Shown piece after piece: positions 1,267-36,197 of a stretch of 64,000 nt of DNA (position 1 is its first letter; every line of letters starts with the position of its first letter). A program made the translations under genes and the position numbers. Under the pieces are notes generated by a model. The model had not been told where the DNA came from and ran no database searches. It saw nothing but the letters and a program-made list of their open reading frames with translations. The DNA is from Eledone cirrhosa (Eukaryota), in the NCBI GenBank assembly GCA_964016885.1, contig OZ024755.1:21018001-21082000 (forward strand), given 5' to 3'.

Positions 1267-1523
1267 ATATATATATATATATACCTTCTATCCTCCCATA
1301 CTGTAGATTATGTATTGCTTCAGTATTGCTTCAGGATTTCTAAGATGTTTTATATGTAAAAAAAGAAATTAAATTATTGAAAATATTTTTCATAATTTGA
1401 CGATAAATATTTTACCTTTAAATACAAAAGAATAACATTTGTAGATAATATTTTTTTTTTAATTTATTTTACCACTTGATCAATGTTTAATATTAACTTT
1501 TGTTTGTCTTCTTTTTTATTCAG

Positions 1524-1647
1524 ATAAACACTGCTCCTATAAATTCTGAGAGAAACAAAATGGATGGCTTTACTTTAGTTTCTTTAGCTTATCTTAATTG
1601 TCAGACATCTTGAAGAGTTATTTCATGGCAACCATGTCAGGTTTTAG
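1524..1647 (+). other. Candidate spliced exon (5' UTR, possibly with start codon M-A-T-M-S-G-F at 1625)
   Basis: Pyrimidine tract plus cag acceptor (1521-1523) and AG|gtaagt donor (1648). Stops occur in all frames before the ATG at 1625. No downstream exon identified. Confidence 0.4.
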
Positions 1648-1846
1648 GTAAGTTACAACCTCATTTCTATTGCTGAGAGTTTATTTGTTACTCAGTAATT
1701 TCAAATTTCACTTTTGAAAATATTCAGTACTTTGTTTTTTAAATGTTCAAATATTTCAGTAAATAACTTCTTTAAGCATTTGAACTTTGACACCTTGTCA
1801 TGTGTACAGTCTCAAACTATGGGCGTCCACATGAGAATCATTGGAA

Positions 1847-1891
<45 letters not shown>

Positions 1892-1974
1892 AATTAAATA
1901 TGAAAAAAAAAGTAGTTAATAAATGTATGAACTTGATATAAAAAACAAACAAACAAATAAGCCATTCACCAGTG

Positions 1975-2270
1975 CTGATATTATATGTCGTATAACTAAC
2001 TCTTGGAAGAAAGAGCTGGGCTTTCAACTCCGACCACACATAGATCTAGATCTGATATTATCTGTCAGTTATAACTCTTGGTAGATAGAGCTGGAGTCTG
2101 AACTCAGAACACATAAATCTAGATCTGGAACTATATGCCAGTTGTAACTCCTGGCAGAAAGAGCTGGCAGGGGTTTGAACTCAGAATACTCACAGATCTA
2201 AATCTGATAGTATAGGCCAGTTGTAACTTCTGGCTGAAAGAGGTGGGGTCTGAACAGATCCAGATCTGAT
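1975..2270. repeat. Degenerate ~70-bp tandem repeat containing SINE B-box-like segment
   Basis: About 4 units of gatctagatctga...taactcttgg..gaaagagctgg...tgaactcagaac. Confidence 0.7.
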
Positions 2271-3042
2271 ACCACAAAGCATCTTGTCTGACTCTTTAAC
2301 AATTCTGCCAATTCACAGCCCTGGAGACTGGCATTTTATTTATCAACCTCGACAAGAAGAAAGGCAAAGTTGATTTCAAAGCTCAGCAAGAAGGAAGATA
2401 TACTGAATCATTACATTTGATGCTGTAGTAACAACAAGCCCACCCTCATATATTTTCCTAGCCTTCCTCTGCTGCCCTCTTTAATCCTTTTTCACAGCTT
2501 CTGGCCCTTCCTATTTTTCTTTGGCCAAAGGTTGTCATCACTCTCTGAACCTAAAAACTACTCTCGATTAAGAGAAGTAGTTTTCTGTTGATCTCAACTT
2601 TGCCAAAAAATGTAGCAGGTCTACTAATCCTATGCCTAACCAAACCCTCTTCCCTAGTCCCCAACCTGGAGAACCCCAGATCTGTTGTTTAGCAGACTTT
2701 TACTGCCATGTAAACAGTCAGTATGTGTCATACTTTGTATATCTTGGATGGAGCCCTATATCTATATGGAGGAACCAATATCTTTTGACAAACATATGAC
2801 ACTGTCTTCTATATCCTAGTTGGAGTGCCGTAACTACATGGAGGAAACAACAGGGTTTCACAAAGATATGTCACTGTCGTGTTCTTTCATCACAACAGTA
2901 ACATATCTTCATTACGACAGTGACATCACTCAGTGATGGCAATAGCTTATAATGAATATATGGAGTGAAATAGATACACCGTTGACATACAAATTAATAT
3001 AAGTAGACACACTTTTGTCAGCTGTGGAGATATTGGATGCAA

Positions 3043-3450
3043 TGAGAGAGAGAAAGAGATACTGTGTGTGTGTGTGAGAGAGAAAGAGATACTGTGTGTG
3101 TGTGAGAGAGAGAAAGAGATACTGTGTGTGTGTGAGAGAGAGAAAGAGATACTGTGTGTGTGTGAGAGAGAGAAAGAGATACTGTGTGTGTGTGTGAGAG
3201 AGAAAGAGATACTGTGTGTGTGTGAGAGAGAGAAAGAGATACTGTGTGTGTGTGAGAGAGAGAAAGAGATACTGTGTGTGTGTGAGAGAGAGAAAGAGAT
3301 ACTGTGTGTGTGTGTGAGAGAGAAAGAGATACTGTGTGTGTGTGAGAGAGAGAAAGAGATACTGTGTGTGTGTGAGAGAGAGAAAGAGATACTGTGTGTG
3401 TGTGAGAGAGAGAAAGAGATACTGTGTGTGTGTGAGAGAGAGAAAGAGAG
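3043..3450. repeat. 30-bp minisatellite (GA)n-aagagatac-(TG)n
   Basis: About 13 near-perfect copies of gagagagagaaagagatactgtgtgtgtgt. Confidence 0.95.
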
Positions 3451-3624
3451 TGAGATTGTGTGTGATGTTAGTAGTAACAAATAGGACATGATGTACAATG
3501 TGTGTAAGAATCTTAGTTATTTTCTCCTAATGGAGAAAGATGAAAACTTAGTTGTGTGTGTGCCTGCCTGTCTGTCTCCCCACATCACAGCAACAACTAG
3601 CTGTGCTCTCCCATTTCACATACA

Positions 3625-3970
3625 TCTTCATCATCATCCCCGGGAAAGTCCATTGTTGGAGACAGGTCTTCCCTGAGTTGCACCATCTTTGCAGATTCTG
3701 AGCCATTCAAGGCCAAAATCTTTCAATTTTCTCAGGGGTTCTCTTGTCACCTGGTCTTCTGATAGCCTCAGCTTTTTGTGTGACCTCGTAGAGGCCAGAA
3801 AGTGATGTAGGTGGTCTATCTGTTGTCAGTCATTCTGGCAATGTGTCCTGCCTGCTTTTATTTTGGTTTACTAATGATTTCTAGGATGTTGCAAACTTTT
3901 GTTTTTCACATGCATAGTCAGCATTATTTCCAACCATTATGCCAAGTATTTTTGCTAGTCTTATGTTAAG
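3625..3970 (-). mobile_element. Degenerate RTE-like LINE 3' fragment
   Basis: Has a (CAT)n end, and the minus strand shows RTE C-terminal-like remnants. Confidence 0.5.
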
Positions 3971-3971
3971 T

Positions 3972-4230
3972 GTGGAGGCACGAGGCCTAATGGTAAGGGT
4001 GTTGGATCATAATGTCATGGGTTCAATTCCTGGACTGGATTGTGTGTTGTGTTCTTGAGCAAAACACTTCATTTCACGTTGCTCCTGTATACATAGCTGA
4101 AAATGAGTACCAGCAATAACTGGGGGTTTTACACTGCGATTGACTGACATCTTGTCCTGGCTGGGGATTTTGTACTCTCAGTTGCTTCATGTCACAAAAC
4201 TGGGATAAACACCAGTCTGACAAGCCACTA
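3972..4230 (+). mobile_element. tRNA-derived SINE family B (CORE-like domain)
   Basis: A-box-like ggcctaatgg, B-box ggttcaattcc, and central ttcttgagcaaaacact...ttcacgttgctcc. Confidence 0.8.
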
Positions 4231-4807
4231 TGTTAAATGGTTTCTGATTTAGCCACAAGGCCAGCAATTTTGGGGCAGGGGGAAGTCAATTCAATCAGCC
4301 CAGTGCATTATTGGTACTTTATTTTATAGACCTTGTAAGGATGAAAGGCAAAGCTAACCACAGCAGGATTTGAACTCAGAACGTAAAGGGCCACAACTCT
4401 ATGCTAGAAAGCATCAATCCACCTTGATTTTAGCATTTGCTTCTAAGTTTGGAATTTCTTCTGGAATTCTTTGACAGATTCAGTTATGAAAACTAGGTCA
4501 GTGGCCTAGATAAACTCCTTTGGCCAACTGATCTTAATCTTATCAAATCTTATATAAATTATTGGCCTCATTCTTTGGTTACGATCATCTGCTTACTATT
4601 AGATGATCTAGTGTAGTGTTAGAGTGCACTTGTACTCTTAATCTAATCTTGAAGTCAACTCAGTTTCATAAAACTATGTAACGAGGCTGAAGTGTTTCAA
4701 AGAAAATGAGACAGCATTTCTATCAGGATCAAACATTTTCAGCTGGCTGCTGCTAACTGAATGCTTGAGATCTTTGCAATCTGCTGACTGACCTCTATAA
4801 ACTCTGA

Positions 4808-5200
4808 GGTAGGTAGATAGGTAGGTGGGTTGGTGGGTGTTTAGGTAAGTAGGTAAATACGTGGGTAGGTCAGTACGTAGGTGGATAGGTAGATAGGTAG
4901 ATATCTTGTGGCTACTAACTGACTTCTACAGATTGTGAGGTAGGTAGGTGGGTAGGCAGGTAGAATGGTAGGAAGATAGGTAGCTAGCTAGAAATGTAAA
5001 TAGGAAGATAGATAGGTTAGTAGGTAGGTAGATATTTTGTTGCTACTAACTGACTTCTATAGATTATGAGGTAGGTAGGTTTAGGTATGTAGGTGGGTAG
5101 ATACGTAGGTAGATAGATAGATATATAGGTAGGTAGGTATATCGGAAAATAGATAGGTGGGTGGGTTAGTAGTTAGGTAGGTATGAAGGTAGGTAGGTAG
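4808..5200. repeat. (GGTA)n-rich compound repeat
   Basis: Imperfect GGTA/GATA runs separated by repeated gctactaactgacttcta spacers. Confidence 0.85.
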
Positions 5201-5475
5201 TTCACAAATGAGAATCAATTCAAACATATTTCGTTCCCAGATTTTAAATGAAATATACTGCCTATAATTTTCAATTAATATTAAAAATAAGAATTTTGGG
5301 GATATAGTGAAATAACTAGTCTCTTCATTTTAAACCCTTTCTTGATTGTATTTCTAAAGAAGAATTTTGATGGATTTACTAAAATTATTTATTATCTCAG
5401 TATTAAGATAGTAACCTAAACATATGGTTCTTATAAAAATTATGTTGGAAGATTTTTTATTTAATTAGGAACTCT

Positions 5476-5691
5476 TTAACCCTTTAGCATTTAAACCGGC
5501 CATATCTGGCCAGAATTCTCTCACCTCTTTCTATTCAAACCAGCTGTAATGGGTCACTCATACTAATGTTAAAGTATTGTTCTCAAAATAAATAATATTT
5601 AATAATAATAGATTTGATATTATGTGAGATAAAGTTTTTACCATGAAAATGTAATAGTAAATGTAGAATAATGTAAATGTTAGAGGGTTAA
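5476..5691 (+). mobile_element. piggyBac-like MITE (family P1), nested in a P2-like element
   Basis: TTAA-ccctttagcattta ... taaatgttagaggg-TTAA. Confidence 0.8.
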
Positions 5692-5832
5692 AATGGGTAG
5701 TTTTGTTTCATAGAACCAGAGCTGATTTTAGCTGGGCTAGGCTGTTACCAAAAAGGGTTAAGATGGTGTTTGAAATATAACTTAAGAAAATTTTCTTACA
5801 TGAAATCATGACAGAAATTAAAAATTTAAATA

Positions 5833-6240
5833 TCATCATCATCATCATCATCACCGTTTTACGTCCGTTCTTCCACGCTAGCATGGGTTAGACGGGTTGT
5901 CCTGTTGTGGGCAGTGTCTGGTCGGCTGACCATGCCTTGCTCATACAGGAACTGATCTGGCTTGATTTCTACAGCTGGATGCCCTTCCTAACACCAACCT
6001 CATTTACAGTGAGTGCTGGGTGCTTTTTCGTGGCGCCTACACGTCCACTTTACAGTGTGGGCTGGGTGCTTTTTTGCCGTGGCACCTCCACGGCCACCTT
6101 GCGGTGGGGGGGGGGGGCATATTGTTTATATGCTTCAGCATGTACCCATGGGAGGTCGGGTACCCTGTATTACTGCGTGACGCCAGAAGTCACGGTCGTG
6201 TGTCATTGACTTTGAGAGGTGTAGTTGGGTAAGGTCGGCT
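5833..6240 (-). mobile_element. Non-autonomous retroposon with RTE-type 3' tail
   Basis: (CAT)n-cgttttacgtccg...ccacgctagcatggg tail and ggatgcccttcctaacaccaacc body. Related copies at 24430-24645, 34735-34905, 47445-47660 and 51860-52079. Confidence 0.8.
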
Positions 6241-6954
6241 TTTATCACAAAATATGAACATTTTAAAACAAATAGCTTTGTGTCATAGAACCAGGGATTG
6301 TTGCTACTAGTTTGGTACCAAAAGGGTCAAATACTTATACTGGGTATTTTCGTATTTCATTTGATATCCAGCCAAGTGATTTTTTATGCTGGGTAACGGA
6401 TGTTAGATGGAGCCAAATCAAGAGAATAGGGAGGGTCATCAACCAGTTCAATGTCACAGTCACACACATCAGCCATTGAAACGAAGGACTTGTGTGTTGG
6501 AGCATTGTCAATATACACTATAGTTGGGTATAATGGTATTTCATTTAAAATATTTCCAAGGAGCTCAGTGTATCCCGTTCAAGAATTACAGGGTTAGAGT
6601 ATGAAATGACCATAAGTTTGGTGTAGCAGACAACAAAGTAAGTGGGAATGGAGGCAAGACGAAGTGTGAGTGTGAATAACCATCACGTGACCGCATTAGC
6701 AGCCGACAGTGAGAGGAAGTGGGAGGCAAGACGAAGTGGGAGTGGGAATAAACATCACGTGACCGAACTAGCAGACATGTGTAAAGTTTTTTCTCTCAAA
6801 TAATTGTAAAATAAAACAATAATACTGAACAAGAAAAATAACAAAGAATAACAAAAGAAGCCATTTAAACCTTTTATTTTTAATTTGTTTTTCCTGCTCG
6901 ATTATCAAGGGATTACTATATTAACAATAAAACAAATCTGAACAGTATATACAG

Positions 6955-6974
<20 letters not shown>

Positions 6975-6988
<14 letters not shown>

Positions 6989-7895
6989 AATTGTCTGTGT
7001 GTGTCCTAATTTTTGCAAAGTCTATACAAATCCACATTTCTACTCCGATTGACTTCAAACTTGCATTTATATATTCCTTGCGGTCTAAAGATATTTTACT
7101 GCAGATTTTATTTTTCAATTTTCTGTTGTTAAAGGGGTGTTAGGCGCCAGTTATCGATCTCTCTGTCTTTCTTAGTCTGTCTTTTTAGATAGATACATAG
7201 CTATAACGTCCCGCCCTTATAATATGTCTATGTCTGCATTACAACATTATGACAAACATTGTTCTCATTGATGACATATTTTCTTCGCTATTTTCCGTTC
7301 ATTGCCAGGGAACGTCTTCATGAACCAAAGTATCGTCTTCCTGTTTTCCTTCGGTTGCAACATTTTTCGAAATATTTACTTCTGCGTTCACAGATTGATT
7401 TTTTTTAGTTTCAGAAGATCCCGTAAGGGTGAAAGCACACATTGTAAGCAATGTCAATGTTACTGCTGCTACATAGGGCTCCCATTACCGCTGAACTTTC
7501 ACCTTTACGTTCTGCATTTCCATCCGCAGTCCAACATGGAATGGTCTTCATAGTAGTCAGTTTATTGAGGGAGAAATAGAAGGGTCTCGAATTTGCTGTC
7601 CAAAAAACCCATTGACAATAACCGCTAACATCAACACAGAATGATACATTGTAGGTTGCTTTAACCCGTCTTTTATTAATCAAAAAACTTATTGCCAATA
7701 AACATTAACCCTTTGTGCACTATTCATCTAACTGTAGACCAACAAATACCAACTAAACGGAGCATTGACAAGAACAATGGCGAATGAATCTTTGAGGTAA
7801 GCAGTTTCCTCCTGAGCTTTTAGTTCACGCGGGATTCTCTGCTACACCTTTTCATAATAATACCGAACAACGTTCTCTGTTTTAGTAATATAGAT
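6975..7895. mobile_element. Possible Helitron-like non-autonomous fragments (two opposed 5' ends)
   Basis: tatataaactgaaattgtctgtgtgtg start on plus and atctatattactaaa start on minus (7895) resemble Helitron/HINE 5' termini. No 3' hairpin-CTAG confirmed. Confidence 0.4.
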
Positions 7896-8035: not shown

Positions 8036-8085
<50 letters not shown>

Positions 8086-8087
<2 letters not shown>

Positions 8088-8494
8088 AGATAAATCTACC
8101 AAAATATAAGGTAGTGTCCAATCCGTATGAAGAACTCAATGTAATCCAAATATCATGAAAAGAGAAGAAGCATTCAAAAATTTTCGATAAAAATCATAGG
8201 AAAACAGAGTCAAGATAAATTAATAAAAACAACGAAATAAAAACAAAGAACAAGTTCCTTATATTAAAAAATTCATCATTTTACGATCGTTTCTGGGATG
8301 TATATGTGTGTTGGTATATATATCATTTCTGAGGACGGCATGTATATGTGAAGGTATGTATATTTCCTCTGATAATTTGTAATATTTTTACATAGATCTA
8401 TATGATACACACACATACATCCCAGAAACGATCGCAAAATGAATTTTTTAATATAAGGAACTTGTTCTTTGTTTTTATTTCATTGTTTTTATTA

Positions 8495-8500
<6 letters not shown>
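8086..8500 (-). mobile_element. Penelope-like/retrozyme-like terminus, family B, with inverted duplication
   Basis: Inverted arms 8215-8310 and ~8410-8500, HHR core on plus, 3' tail 8086-8215 on minus, (TA)n on both sides. Confidence 0.7.
8323..8442 (+). ncRNA. Long-stem-II hammerhead (family B), probably inactive copy
   Basis: tcattt CTGAGGA ... GAAACGATCG-C-A aaatga. The conserved U16.1 is C in this copy. Confidence 0.65.
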
Positions 8501-8562: not shown

Positions 8563-8698
8563 GTTATTCCGGGTTGAATCGGAGGTAACCACAGTAAGTA
8601 AGGTACTCAATACATAGCAGAGTATAACAGTTTTAATATAGATGAGATTCTACAGGACTAGAACTGTTTCATTCATTAGAAATCATCAGGAATCTCAT
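8562..8698 (-). mobile_element. Family A element: HHR plus 3' tail between (TA)n tracts
   Basis: Reverse complement of 35526-35660, flanked by TA repeats. Confidence 0.75.
8642..8698 (-). ncRNA. Type I hammerhead ribozyme (family A)
   Basis: Minus strand: atgagattc CTGATGA t-ttc-taat-gaa-t GAA ACAG ttctagtc CTGT-A gaatctcat. Perfect 9-bp stem I, 4-bp stem III, GUA triplet. Confidence 0.85.
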
Positions 8699-8860
8699 AT
8701 ATATATATATTCATTCCACTTTGAAAGTTCATTGTAACTACATATCTAAGTAGTTGGATGCGAATTAATTTTGATAAAAATAATGAAATAATCAAAAATT
8801 AGCGGTCCAAGACTTTGGATTATGGTGTTTTTTTATATTTTTCTAATTTTTTAGTAATTT

Positions 8861-9284: not shown

Positions 9285-9338
<54 letters not shown>

Positions 9339-9341
<3 letters not shown>

Positions 9342-9530
9342 GATAAATCTACCAAGAGTTTACGGTAGTGTCCAATCCGTATGAAGAACTCAATGTAATC
9401 CGGATATCATGGAAAGAAGAGATGCAATGAAAAATCACTTTCGGTGAAAGATAAACGGAATACAGAGTCAAGATAAAATATTTAAAAAATAATGAATAAA
9501 ACAATGAAACAGTTCCTTATATTAAACAAA
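9339..9530 (-). mobile_element. Diverged family B 3' tail
   Basis: gtagataaatctacc...ggtagtgtccaatccgtatgaagaactcaatgtaatcc matches 8086-8260 and abuts (TA)n. Confidence 0.75.
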
Positions 9531-10407
9531 AAAAGTTATATATATTAAACAAAAAAGTATATATATATATGAGAGAGAGCCGTTTTATTTTGAAATAAAA
9601 GAAATTTACAATTCATCAACGTTTGCAAAAAAAAAAAGGAACGAGAAACTAACGAAAAACAGAAAAAGGGAATAATGTTAAAAAGGGAAGGTAAAGGAAA
9701 TGGAGGTGGAACCAGCAAACTTTACACCCTGGTCTGAGGTTATAAATAAGAGCAGGACTATTTCTTGTTATACTAGTCGGTGATGAGTTACCTCCCTTAG
9801 ATAAAGAAGCTGAGAATTACTTAGGTTGTTAGCAACACTAGTTAATAATTGTTAATAGTTTCAATATTATGTTATGTTTTTAATATAAGGTAAACAATGA
9901 AAGAAGTAAATACAAACGTGAGGAGATATTAATAAATAATGTCAACCAGCCAAGACCTGATGAAATTAACAAGGGAGCCTGTTGTGGTTACTTCTTACTT
10001 CGGCAAAGAGGCGAGAGAAAAAAAGTTGGTCCTTATATCTACTGTAGTCAAAATACGACCCACAAGTTACCCCATGTTTCTATCTACTCCAGGGACCTTT
10101 ACTGCACATTTCCGTATTGCGCTGTAACAGTTTCAGTGCATATCGAACAAACTTTCTTTTGGTGATGGAGTCGTCTTGTCAAAAGTAATTAAATAATTAA
10201 ATACACAATAAAACACTGGTTTTAATTGTTGCTGCTGCTGTTGTTTAGACCCTGGTTAGCTTCTGTGGTCAAATATGTTCCAGCTCTATCTTGTTATTTT
10301 TAGGGCTATCTTGGTATATATTGTATCCAATATGTCCCAAGTTTGTATTATTCAAAGGGCTTACTTGTGTGATGCCAAGTCCCGCAGGGATTAGGAACCC
10401 ATCATTA

Positions 10408-31645: not shown

Positions 31646-32300
31646 CATCATCATCATCATCATCATCATTTTACGTCCGCTTTTCCCTGCTTGCAAGGGT
31701 GGGACGGGTCTTATTCAGCACAGGATCTCTCCACTCGTCACGGTCCCTCGTCATCTCCACCGTGAGCTTCAATGATCTGAGGTCTGTTCTCACCACCTCC
31801 GCCCATGTTTTTCGTGGTCTACCTCTACCACGTCTTCCTTCAACTGGCATTTCCTGGCACTTCTTCACCCATCGGTCATCCTCCATGCGCATCACATGTC
31901 CATACCACCTCAGTCTCCTCTCCCGTACACTACATTCTATCCCTCTCAGACACAGTTTCTCTCTCAACACATTTATGCTGGGTCGTTCACGCACATTTAC
32001 ACTGCACATCCAACGGAGCATGCTTGCCTCATTTCTCTCCAGCCGTCGCATATCTTCTGCGGTAGCTGCCCATGTCTCACTACCATGCAGCATCGCGCTC
32101 CTCACACAGGCATCATACAACCGGCCTTTCGTACGCAGGGAGAAACCCTTCTTCGTCAACAGAGGAAGCAGCTCCCTAAACTTCTTCCAACCCGTCCTTA
32201 TTCTAGATACTATGGCCTCGGAACACCCTCCTCCCATGCTAATCTGATCTCCTAGGTACCGGAAGCTATCCACCACTTCTATAGCGCCCTCTCGCATTTG
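31646..32300 (-). mobile_element. Young 5'-truncated RTE-clade LINE with open ORF C-terminus
   Basis: ORF IEVVDSFRYLG...AMLHGSETW...RLRWYGHVMRM...GRRGRGRPRKTW is uninterrupted. (GAT)n tail, inserted in (TA)n. Confidence 0.93.
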
Positions 32301-33462
32301 AAAAATGTGTCTATCATATATATATAATGTGTCTATCATATATATATATATATATATATTGGTAAACGGAATAGAAAATGCTGACAAATTGTTCACAGTT
32401 GAAAAATGGTTTAATTAGGAATAAAAGAGTATTAGTGATTGTATGGGTTAGTATTCAGTTGTGGTTTTAAGTTTTTAAGTTTTTACCGGTTGCGCATTTC
32501 TAAATGCTTTTCAAAAATAATTTTGAGATAGAGTGTCCGTGCTGTTTGCTCTGATCTGATTAGTTTTGGGAATTCTACCTGTTTTTATGTTAAAAAAGTG
32601 GCTCCAGCGTTACTTTGGTGTTGCAAAATTTCTTGTGGTCAAAACAATTTTGATTGGTCGGTAGAGGTCATGTGAGTGTAAAAAATTGATTTTGCGCCAA
32701 GTCTTTTTATGTTAAAAATATATATATATATATATATATATACAAATTTTAGTACAGCATTAACGAAGCTTTTGGCTGCGGCTAAGCTAATGAATGCAGA
32801 TTCGAAATGCAGCTTAGCACTCAATGGAGAATAATGCCCCAGAGTTATAACAATACATTTAGACAGCTTTGCAAATCAAATATAGCGACCGACAGTCCAG
32901 CCGCTTTGCCATAGCAACGAAAAAAACTGAACTCAGGAAAAGATTTTGACTGACCTGGACCATCACGTGGACATAGAATGCAACACATAACGCATAACAT
33001 ATAGCATACAATATACATCACATATAACATACAACATCCACGCTAGGTTTCTGTAAATCCGACTAATTCCGCTTACGGGGGTCTGCAAGTTAATGGCCTT
33101 TGACGACAGAACAAAGGATTTACTTCGTCAACAAGTCTTGCGTTCTATAGCCTCGACGGGTGTGTTTTCTAGCATTAATTTTCGCTATAGACACATGGTT
33201 TTCCCAAAGGGAGCTAACCCCCGTTTTAGCGGTCAATTCGAAATTTGGGACAAAGGAATGAAATTCCCTTTGACAAACCGAATTATACGTCTTCTTAGTC
33301 TTAAGTTCTTCTACCTCATCCCCTGATGGCTTATATATTCATCTACTACTACCAACTTAAGGATCTATACTGCTCTTCCCTATTCTTAGTATTGGTCAAC
33401 CTCAACCTGGTTATACAACATTACTTATTCATATGTATGTTTTTTTGTATTCTTCAATAAAC

Positions 33463-33611
33463 AAAACTCATTATTTCTGAAGATGGTGGGTAGTGAAGAC
33501 ATATGTATTTTTTCTTACTATGATAATTTGTAATATATTTTACATAGATCAATAATTGAATGGGCATTCGGAGAGCTACCCCTCAGAAACGATCGTAAAA
33601 TAATGAGTTTT
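33463..33611 (+). ncRNA. Long-stem-II type I hammerhead (family B variant)
   Basis: aaaactcattattt CTGAAGA tggtgggtag...ctacccctca GAA ACGATCGT-A aaataatgagtttt. Perfect 14-bp stem I, palindromic stem III, GUA cleavage after 33597. Confidence 0.85.
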
Positions 33612-33652
33612 ACTATGAATTAACCGTTTTTTGTTTAATTTCATTGTTTTAA

Positions 33653-33691
<39 letters not shown>

Positions 33692-33693
<2 letters not shown>

Positions 33694-33830
33694 CTTCAAC
33701 AGGACTAGAATTGTTTCATTCAAATGAAACAATTCTAGTCCTGTAGAAGTTATTGCTATACTCTACCAATATATTGAGTACCTTTCTCAACTGTGGTTAC
33801 CTGCCAACACAACTCGGGAATCTATACATT
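33692..33830 (+). mobile_element. Family A variant: short fold-back (33692-33751) plus 3' tail
   Basis: acaggactagaattgtttcatt|ca|aatgaaacaattctagtcctgt, then attgagtacc...tgtggttacc. CTGATGA is absent. Confidence 0.75.
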
Positions 33831-33982
33831 AATATATATATATATATATATATATAATGTAGGAGGTGAGTTTTATTGTAGTACAATAAAGCAATGCAGA
33901 TATCGGATAAGAAGCACTCTACAGTTTGTGGGACTGGAGTATGCATAATATAAGATCAAAAGATGGTTAAAGGAGTTCCATA

Positions 33983-34053
33983 TATTTTATTATGCGCATT
34001 TCAAAAACAAACATCATCAAGCAATAATATTTGTGTTTTCATCAGATAAAACA
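33983..34053 (-). ncRNA. Type I hammerhead (family D), minus-strand copy
   Basis: Reverse complement of 34175-34245. Confidence 0.8.
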
Positions 34054-34174
34054 GGAGAACATGATATGAAGGCTAAAAAAACACTTGTTGATCGTGCAGT
34101 TTTAAATCAACATATGTTGATTTAAAACTGCACTATCAACAAGTGTTTTTTTTAGCCTTCATATCATGTTCTCC

Positions 34175-34245
34175 TGTTTTATCTGATGAAAACACAAATA
34201 TTATTGCTTGATGATGTTTGTTTTTGAAATGCGCATAATAAAATA
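34175..34245 (+). ncRNA. Type I hammerhead (family D)
   Basis: tgttttat CTGATGA aaacacaaatattatt..gatgatgtttgttttt GAA ATGCGCAT-A ataaaata. Stem I 8 bp, AU/GU-rich stem II, palindromic stem III, AUA triplet. Confidence 0.8.
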
Positions 34246-34275
34246 TATGGAACTTCTTTAACCATCTTTTGATCT

Positions 34276-34331
<56 letters not shown>

Positions 34332-34383
34332 TAATAAAAACAATGAAATAGACACAAAGAACAAGTTCCTTATATTAAAAAAT

Positions 34384-34511
34384 TCATCATTTTACGATCG
34401 TTTCAGGGATGTATATGTGGGTTGGTATGTATATCATATGTAAAAATATTACAAATTATCAGAGGAAATATGCATACCTTCACATAAACATGCCGTCCTC
34501 AGAAATGATGA
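34384..34511 (-). ncRNA. Long-stem-II hammerhead (family B)
   Basis: Minus strand: tcatcattt CTGAGGA cggcatg...catccct GAA ACGATCGT-A aaatgatga. Stem I is 9 bp. Confidence 0.8.
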
Positions 34512-34585
34512 GATGTGTTTATTGAAAAAAACAAAGAATTAATATAAAGGGTCTGTTTGGGAACAGGTTTTGAATTGACCATATC

Positions 34586-35465: not shown

Positions 35466-35468
<3 letters not shown>

Positions 35469-35658
35469 TTTTAATATAGATGAGATTCTACAGGACTAGA
35501 ACTGTTTCATTCTTTAGAAATCATCAGATTCCTGATGATTTCTAAAGAATGAAACAGTTCTAGTCCTGTAGAATCTCATCTATATTAAAACTTTTATACT
35601 CTGCTATGTATTGAGTACCTTACTTACTGTGGTTACCTCCGATTCAACCCGGAATAAC

Positions 35659-35774: not shown

Positions 35775-35880
35775 AAAAAGTATGACCCCGACGGCAGAGC
35801 TCAAGCCGTTTCGACGGCTATTTCTGGACTAATAAAAACAATGAAATAAACACAAAGAACAAGTTCCTTATATTAAAAAA

Positions 35881-36012
35881 ATCATTTTACGATCGTTTCT
35901 GGGATGTATATGTGTGTTGGTATGTATATCATATAGATCTATGTAAAAATATTACAAATTATCAGAGGAAATATACATACCTTCACATATACATGCCATC
36001 CTCAGAAATGAT
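35881..36012 (-). ncRNA. Long-stem-II hammerhead (family B)
   Basis: Minus strand: atcattt CTGAGGA tgg-c-atgtatatgtg..ggtatgtatat ... atatacatacc..cacatatacat-c-cca GAA ACGATCGT-A aaatgat. Confidence 0.85.
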
Positions 36013-36197
36013 GAGATGTGTTTATTGAAACAAAACAAAGAATTAATATTATACACACATATATATATATACAGAGAGCGAGGGAGAGAGAAATAATTGT
36101 TTCTACTTTTGGAACAAGGCCAGCAATTACCCAGTACATTACTGGTACTTTATTTTATCGACCCTGTAAGGATGAAAGGCAAAGTTAACCTCGGCGG

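Follow-up and report, generated by a model that had tools for sequence, protein, structure and literature searches.

The window, a 64-kb stretch of microsatellite-rich animal DNA from Eledone cirrhosa (genome of 3.0 Gb), carries a hammerhead ribozyme motif whose catalytic boxes, CUGANGA and GAAA, are separated by roughly 100 nt. This raises the question of which element carries the motif and what such a long stem II does for it. The sequence-only reading had placed four copies at 33463(+), 35881(-), 34384(-) and 8323(+) with 90-100 nt between the boxes. All four are found there, with distances of 102, 99, 91 and 89 nt, respectively, and they are decayed ends of Hydra-type Penelope-like retroelements.

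The main copy belongs to a 5'-truncated insertion of subfamily A (33309..33659, forward strand) made of the end of a 3' UTR, a pLTR with the hammerhead and a short tail running into (TA)n. It is 89-92% identical to longer copies that have the end of a GIY-YIG endonuclease upstream. Upstream of the hammerhead it has ATTGG (33391..33395, +), a reverse CCAAT-like motif of putative promoter role about 75 nt 5' of the probable RNA 5' end, found at a similar position in subfamilies A, B, C1, C2 and K. A likely poly(A) signal, AATAAA (33456..33461, +), lies directly 5' of stem I and keeps this place in A, B, C1, C2, K and D. The 5' strand of stem I (33463..33476, +), in which 33470 is position -7, the most frequent 5' end of genomic copies, leads to the catalytic box CUGAAGA (33477..33483, +) and to the extended stem II of 102 nt (33484..33585, +). 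The latter comprises a basal helix (33484-33494 with 33575-33585), a middle helix and an apical hairpin. It also contains a putative splice-donor-like hexamer (33501..33506, +), GTATGT in the subfamily with G changed to A in this copy, and the apical motif (33521..33550, +), whose blocks 33521-33532 and 33541-33550 surround a variable loop. The GAAA box, a 2-bp stem III with a palindromic GAUC loop and the GUA triplet (33595-33597) occupy 33586..33597 (+), with the predicted cut after 33597, and the 3' strand of stem I follows (33598..33611, +).

The other three copies are of subfamily B. Two are on the reverse strand, at 35830..36049 (core 36005-35999, insert of 99 nt, predicted cut after 35888) and at 34326..34581 (core 34502-34496, insert of 91 nt). 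The third (8322..8500, +; core 8329-8335, insert of 89 nt) starts at -7 and has an inverted, 5'-truncated second arm with a long tail (8039..8326, -). All four copies are damaged: the one at 33463 differs from its subfamily at 9 positions, the one at 34384 has lost 8 nt of the apical motif and the one at 35881 lacks the outer end of stem I. In the copy at 8323 the middle helix carries a deletion and GCA replaces GUA, a change that probably makes this ribozyme inactive.

The unusual stem II proposed from these few copies is borne out genome-wide, where the pattern CTGANGA-N85-115-GAAACGATCGTA has 5,576 matches versus 2 for the reversed control. The same core pattern gives 3,590 matches with N116-146 (10 in the control), 231 with N55-84 (13) and 137 with N10-40 (9), and a tail anchor covering two lineages gives 12,954 versus 0. 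These matches do not equal insertions because many insertions have two inverted arms. Clustering of 139 of the 144 copies with an intact 5' side, from 160 copies in the fetched loci and with 5 singletons left out, yields six subfamilies with inserts of 99-116 nt that represent three deep lineages: A (33 copies), B (36), C1 (13), C2 (29), K (21) and D (7). The copy numbers are not abundances because the A, B and C2 samples are partly best-hit sets. Copies of K, which have a 3.7-kb microsatellite-rich 3' UTR, are near-identical (median of 97.5-98% to the majority sequence); K is very young and probably recently active. A genome-wide alignment of all copies would reflect mostly neutral decay, so that only differences between subfamilies are informative.

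Host element and probable 5' end of its RNA

An endonuclease end is found 0.6 to about 3.8 kb upstream of the hammerhead, on the same strand, in all six subfamilies. Locus L188 holds a full copy of subfamily K, consisting of an inverted 5' piece, pLTR with hammerhead, 5' UTR, ORF, 3' UTR (3926-7670 of the locus, 3.7 kb) and a second pLTR with hammerhead, followed by a tail to (TA)n. The intact ORF between the two direct pLTR repeats (1484-3925) codes for a single 813-aa protein with a reverse transcriptase followed by a carboxyl-terminal GIY-YIG-type endonuclease, YRDD being at residue 346 and Y-x-C...YIG at 694. RVRWR is present at 35, with R for K, and DKT at 115, and GxKF/Y is absent. The linker and endonuclease motifs are CNCRNKTNC (CxCX5C, 673), CRLC (CxxC, 771) and CNH (CxH, 799); the GIY-YIG motif has no internal CxxC and there is no CCHH. 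Pfam and PDB sequence searches with the 813-aa protein give no significant match, and its nearest Atlas clusters are eukaryotic proteins with HTH_animal, GIY-YIG and RVT_1 domains.

The ORF motifs match the list of Hydra-clade features in the available text of PMC8557442, and insertion in (TA)n, pLTRs and inverted 5'-truncated arms are further Hydra-clade traits. With the assignment made by ORF motifs and by comparison by eye with reference proteins in the supplement text, it is nearly certain that the host is a Hydra-type Penelope-like element and that the motif is its hammerhead. A non-LTR retrozyme was considered and rejected, the copies being 5'-truncated or inverted ends of an ORF-bearing element and not non-coding tandem units; of the 165 repeat rows for the window, the 150 listed include no tandem array over any of the four copies. 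The 3' UTR of 0.6-3.8 kb differs from Hydra elements, described as shorter than 3 kb in all (PMC8557442).

Tails of A, B, C and K copies end at two fixed points, about 60 and 190 nt past the cut site, with examples at 8039-8326 and 9287-9537 of the window. Two fixed ends are as expected of two reverse-transcription start sites, and the longer tail has motifs common to all lineages. At the other side of the element, 41 of the first 100 C and K copies listed, all on one contig, end 1-13 nt upstream of C3, 18 of them exactly at -7, the A of TCATT. The remaining ones end at -16/-21 (2 copies), are interrupted at -7 by an inserted short repeat (5) or continue (52), with none ending from -22 to -62; this tally was counted by eye and takes two arms of one insertion as two copies. 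Recomputing the first 30 gives 12 ends at -5 to -10, 3 of which are beside the short repeat, and 18 continuing copies. The window copy at 8323 also begins at -7, where subfamily B has ATC and not ATT. In a separate set of 100 listed copies none starts at the cut site, while L116 and L132 begin 1-3 nt after it.

Because so many copies begin at stem I, the ribozyme probably opens the element RNA. The simplest reading is that the template RNA would have the first base of stem I as its 5' end and be copied uncleaved from the tail start sites. Its end near -7 may be a transcription start, TCATT being what we take to be an initiator-like word, or may result from a cut after the adjacent AATAAA. Nicking by the endonuclease could add to the accumulation of ends, since -7 is also an insertion target and the endonuclease of the Anolis element is reported to prefer ATT in the accessible part of PMC11167929. 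An extra G at -8 in 7 of the 18 copies ending at -7 is not counted as cap-derived, for these copies trace to only about four insertions, and the second arm accounts for some of them.

The insertion target is used by an abundant short repeat that ends in GTAGAAACA followed by ATT units and enters the ATTATT of stem I at position -7. It is also present in L245, L255 and L257, at 120-227 of the window and in at least a dozen more places.

Core, stem II helices and apical motif

The CUGANGA and GAAA boxes, the 3-8 pair and an NUH triplet are present in all six subfamilies. The 3-8 pair is C3-G8 except in D, where it is U3-A8, and the triplet is GUA, or GUU in K; these variants in D and K argue for selection on catalysis, and cleavage appears likely. 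Stem I has 9-14 bp, is open-ended and shows 3-4 two-sided changes. Stem III has 2 bp with a palindromic loop; short palindromic stems III have been reported to need dimers, according to the available portions of PMC4209133 and PMC6765202. The insert has a common fold in the six subfamilies with, from the core outwards, C.A, 2 bp, C.C, basal helix, internal loop, middle helix and apical hairpin. Its folding is supported by z scores of -2.9 to -7.9 in the five subfamily-typical copies and of -1.2 in the copy at 33463.

Every subfamily has a weak stem II base (C.A, 2 bp, C.C), with the 10.1-11.1 position next to G12 occupied by C.A instead of a Watson-Crick pair. A U.U mismatch at this place is reported to be active in the part of PMC3088659 at hand. 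Pairing at the base in both window variants, as claimed by the sequence-only reading, holds for the basal helix, which covaries, but the U-A of the 33463 and 35881 copies is copy-specific: the C to T changes at 33484 and 35998 are CpG decay at a site that is C.A in all six subfamilies, which have C.C three positions up. The compensatory change that the same reading saw in stem I is a true subfamily difference, U-A to C-G, for which two other subfamilies supply the U.G intermediate.

Two-sided pair changes across the six subfamilies affect 4 of 10 pairs in stem I, 4 of 6 in the basal helix, 1 of 13 in the middle helix and 1 of 12 in the apical helices. When 10 natural copies are aligned to a model derived from subfamilies B, C and K, pairing holds in 94% of the cells and 17 of 44 pairs show a two-sided change, a figure reached by 0 of 500 shuffles and compared with 6 at most in slid controls; this alignment leans to its model, represents three deep lineages only, and kinship can beat shuffles. 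Stem I and the lower helices of stem II thus covary between subfamilies, as the sequence-only reading had held for stem I and the base of stem II. Such covariation is nearly absent from the apical segment, which is invariant in sequence.

The apical motif consists of two blocks, of 12 and 10 nt, with 21 of 22 positions invariant in the six subfamilies, so that its conservation extends well past the window copies; within the tgtaa/ttaca hairpin proposed before, only TGTA/TACA is invariant. The predicted fold is GAU/AUC, a 4x3 internal loop ANUU/UAG and UGUA/UACA. The blocks are 92-100% identical between lineages and the adjoining segments 31-74%, while identity in the terminal loop is 17-38% between D and the rest and 33-88% when A is compared with K or B. 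At four-fold synonymous sites (35-137 sites), A or D agrees with the other subfamilies in 28-45% of cases, where composition alone predicts 28-36%; synonymous sites of the three lineages are near saturation. Against this background the apical motif appears to be under strong constraint, unless pieces of pLTR have been exchanged between subfamilies. The spacer between the blocks, 7 to 18 nt long, lengthens the helix and shows one A-U to U.G change, a pattern as expected of an RNA hairpin. In the 10-copy alignment 6 of the 7 core apical pairs never vary and so cannot covary, which leaves energy and complementarity as the grounds for the apical fold. An invariant irregular helix whose terminal loop is free to vary is more in keeping with a site for protein binding than with a loop-loop tertiary contact, and the hairpin is likely to be such a site.

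When all fetched loci and the window are searched for the ANUU/UAG loop, 97 matches have GA/UGUA flanks and 8 have other flanks; none of the latter that was examined lies in a hammerhead, and there is thus no independent occurrence. The motif is not generally required, since other long-stem-II families with the same stem III do not have it. The B, C and K covariance model scores A copies at 75-78 bits, D at 57-67 and the other long families at 22-41, with fold-back noise up to 49; the scores of the latter families are within this noise and give no support for homology of their inserts. Readings of the apical loop as a SECIS element or a kink-turn were dropped for want of an adjacent canonical stem, because of the short helix and because the L188 ORF has no in-frame UGA, the comparison being made to what we take to be the consensus of each.

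Compared with relatives described so far, the stem II arm has about four times the length. The 26 Hydra rows in File S2 of PMC8557442, including Hydra-1_Obim of Octopus bimaculoides, have a stem II of 3-7 bp and a loop II of 3-10 nt, hence at most about 26 nt between boxes, whereas the inserts here measure 99-116 nt and combine three tiers of helices with the invariant apical motif. Even PLE-X1_sMoe, the longest in the whole file, has about 54 nt. Shared with the Hydra-clade hammerheads are the type I topology, the location near the 3' end of an element with a carboxyl-terminal endonuclease and the short palindromic stem III, together with (TA)n targets and ORF motifs for the elements (PMC8557442). 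In the Hydra rows, too, stem II commonly has extra or mismatched nucleotides next to the core, often U.U, and C.A occurs in PLE-X1_cBra. The minimal hammerheads of metazoan Penelope-like elements, as presented in the accessible text of PMC4209133, likewise have a palindromic unstable helix III implying dimeric cleavage, a U3-A8 variant and a pLTR location. They differ in having a helix II of at most 7-8 bp with G10.1-C11.1 at the core, in place of a long stem II with C.A, and a helix I of 4-5 bp, in place of 9-14 bp. From the same text comes a search descriptor with a stem II of 3-7 bp and a loop of 3-10 nt, and the relaxed core search of PMC8557442 uses a spacer of 7-17 nt. Inserts of 99-116 nt exceed both and would be missed.

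That standard searches would overlook the motif, as had been predicted, is therefore correct for the published descriptors, but the blank in Rfam is not due to stem length alone because the short-stem relative L157 is missed too. Among the 150 of 216 Rfam matches listed for the window there is no hammerhead, with AT-repeat microRNA noise below gathering score, and at 5 loci there is none at gathering score, one tRNA-like match being in flanking DNA. In the sources as far as available, a 'long' helix II of viral type I hammerheads has 6-8 bp (PMC13725137), stem II is variable and often very short (PMC3088659), and a retrozyme preprint (10.64898/2026.07.22.740005) relies on canonical and minimal models. 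The full-text literature searched, with few subscription papers, yielded no paper on this long-stem architecture, and the available part of the 2026 Octopus vulgaris repeat annotation (PMC13282606) has no occurrence of 'hammerhead'.

Possible roles of the extended stem II

We favor, with moderate confidence, a model in which the hammerhead opens the RNA as a slow cutter, while the long stem II, a predicted stack of helices, presents a sequence-specific irregular hairpin to a protein. The type I motif in the pLTR would form the 5' end of the element RNA, which would start near stem I from a promoter in the pLTR or by poly(A) cleavage after AATAAA. The ribozyme is predicted to cut only slowly, as a dimer or with protein help, and reverse transcription would begin in the tail and copy through it uncleaved. 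The apical hairpin would bind the reverse transcriptase-endonuclease of the element or a host RNA-binding protein, a binding that might couple RNP assembly to folding or cleavage, and the RNA with the ORF would lose its first 125-140 nt, hairpin included, on cleavage. The Anolis element depends on its own protein for cleavage and uses uncleaved RNA as template, according to the accessible text of PMC11167929.

A doubtful alternative, compatible with the protein-binding model as far as the lower part of the insert is concerned, is that an intron of the 5' UTR begins within stem II, with the donor-like motif at +32 to +36 and as acceptor either a YAG 34-35 nt 5' of the start codon or the apical UAG. 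With such an intron, half of the ribozyme would be lost together with the two tail ends and most of the upstream AUGs, so that spliced RNA would be the mRNA and only unspliced RNA could be copied. AG|GTATGT, AC|GTATGT or AG|GTAAAT is present in all six subfamilies, and D keeps GTA and gains an A at +4 while losing the pairing at +4/+5. The donor is, however, inside a helix of 7-15 bp in five of the six subfamilies, which might by itself account for its conservation. K, C2 and D have 7-10 upstream ATGs in a 5' UTR that measures 419-495 nt, and the YAG 34-35 nt before the ATG recurs in these three and in the B-type copy L106, but the pyrimidine tracts at the acceptors are weak and the short version of 42-58 nt is very tight, with about 19 nt from donor to branch in B. 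Spliced genomic copies are absent among the first 100 of 231 matches for the short version and the first 100 of 137 for splicing to G12, and none of 3 matches is genuine for the long version; this is weak evidence because Penelope-like elements retain introns. Contigs of four runs from one study, of a kind not given, show no GT..AG joint in the C2 and K 5' regions among those listed, which counts neither for nor against splicing. Depth in run X4 is higher downstream of the cut site, and is uninterpretable since the kind of run is not given. The available text of PMC2377424 describes for Drosophila Penelope a conserved intron of 75 nt that begins 46 nt past the start. Penelope of D. virilis (PMC2377424) and PAc of Anolis (PMC11167929), as far as these texts are accessible, likewise have a pLTR promoter, a donor dozens of bases past the start, an uncleaved template and two tail ends. 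They differ in that the Penelope intron ends at the 5' side of helix I, whereas the donor-like site here is inside stem II and the probable RNA end at stem I, and in that the PAc ORF starts in stem II, whereas the ORF here starts about 300-365 nt after the GAAA box. That stem II serves both as hairpin for a protein and as intron donor, the intron spanning the cut site and the reverse-transcription start sites, we consider unlikely. If true, one RNA would have three exclusive fates, as spliced mRNA, as uncleaved template or as cleaved RNA shedding a capped hairpin of 125-140 nt, and this would explain intron retention in Penelope-like elements and the purpose of their ribozymes.

Invariant sequence without covariation would also be expected if the apical blocks were DNA-level internal promoter elements 40-90 nt after the start, the hairpin being incidental. 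Their place just downstream of the probable start, with the initiator-like TCATT at -7 and the reverse CCAAT upstream, agrees with this. In the accessible part of PMC2377424, Penelope has an internal promoter in the corresponding region. The blocks are, though, mutually complementary, separated by 7 to 18 nt and set atop covarying helices, and we find the promoter explanation very unlikely. Less likely still is an apical domain folding back onto stem I to speed cleavage, a tertiary role that had been suggested for it. Contacts between stems I and II are the usual accelerator of hammerheads (PMC3088659, in its available part), and in another long family of this genome the insert could plausibly form a pseudoknot with bases 5' of stem I. 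Against a loop-loop contact, D shares only 17-38% of the terminal loop with the other lineages, stem I is free of bulges, the motif is about 25 bp from the core, beyond a stem I of 7-10 bp, and no conserved complement is seen by eye in the flanks. There is very little to recommend a tolerated, functionless expansion with similarity due to shared ancestry or pLTR exchange: families sharing this stem III do differ in stem II length, from 20 to 116 nt, and exchange of pLTR pieces between subfamilies could occur, but invariant blocks alternate with segments of 31-74% identity and the helices covary.

The protein-binding model bears on hammerheads whose role in Penelope-like elements is described as unclear (PMC8557442). 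The motif is real and constrained, and represents a variant form of the Penelope-type hammerhead; the ribozyme class and the element clade were already known, and the added domain under strong constraint is new. Thousands of motifs beyond published size limits imply that surveys undercount hammerheads. The accumulation of copy ends at stem I locates a probable 5' end of the RNA from genomic copies and connects the ribozyme with either the start of transcription or poly(A) cleavage. The very young subfamily K, with its intact ORF, offers a ready test system of RNA and own protein.

Neighboring ORFs and other hammerhead families

Just upstream of the A copy, and outside its homology, a 77-codon open frame (33093-33326, +) has no Pfam match. 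A LINE-type reverse transcriptase ORF is present as a carboxyl-terminal fragment at 31671-32414 (-), with relatives in L010, L051 and L052 and a blank in Pfam; we take it to be RTE-like from its motifs.

The window has two more hammerhead families. A hammerhead-like one, in a fold-back insertion (34172-34249, +, and 33979-34056, -), has 36 nt between boxes, a palindromic GCGC loop III and an AUA triplet. The other (35525-35580, +, and 8640-8700, -; fold-backs 35466-35590 and 33692-33760) is short and lies in (TA)n-flanked repeats, with 12 nt between boxes, a 3-bp stem III and GUA. Outside the window, L102, L184, L185 and L186 form a long-stem-II family with an 8-bp basal stem, a branched insert and a 4-bp stem I. 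Its GGGC(A) just upstream of stem I complements (U)GCCC in the insert over 5-6 bp in three of four copies, a probable pseudoknot. Further families sharing the GAUCGU stem III fall in four groups, with inserts of about 95-100 nt and branched (L100, L101, L139, L146, L179-L182, L187), of 62 nt (L137, L168-L172), of 55-65 nt and AU-rich (L176-L178) and of 20 nt (L148, L156, L157). The length of stem II looks evolutionarily labile in this genome.
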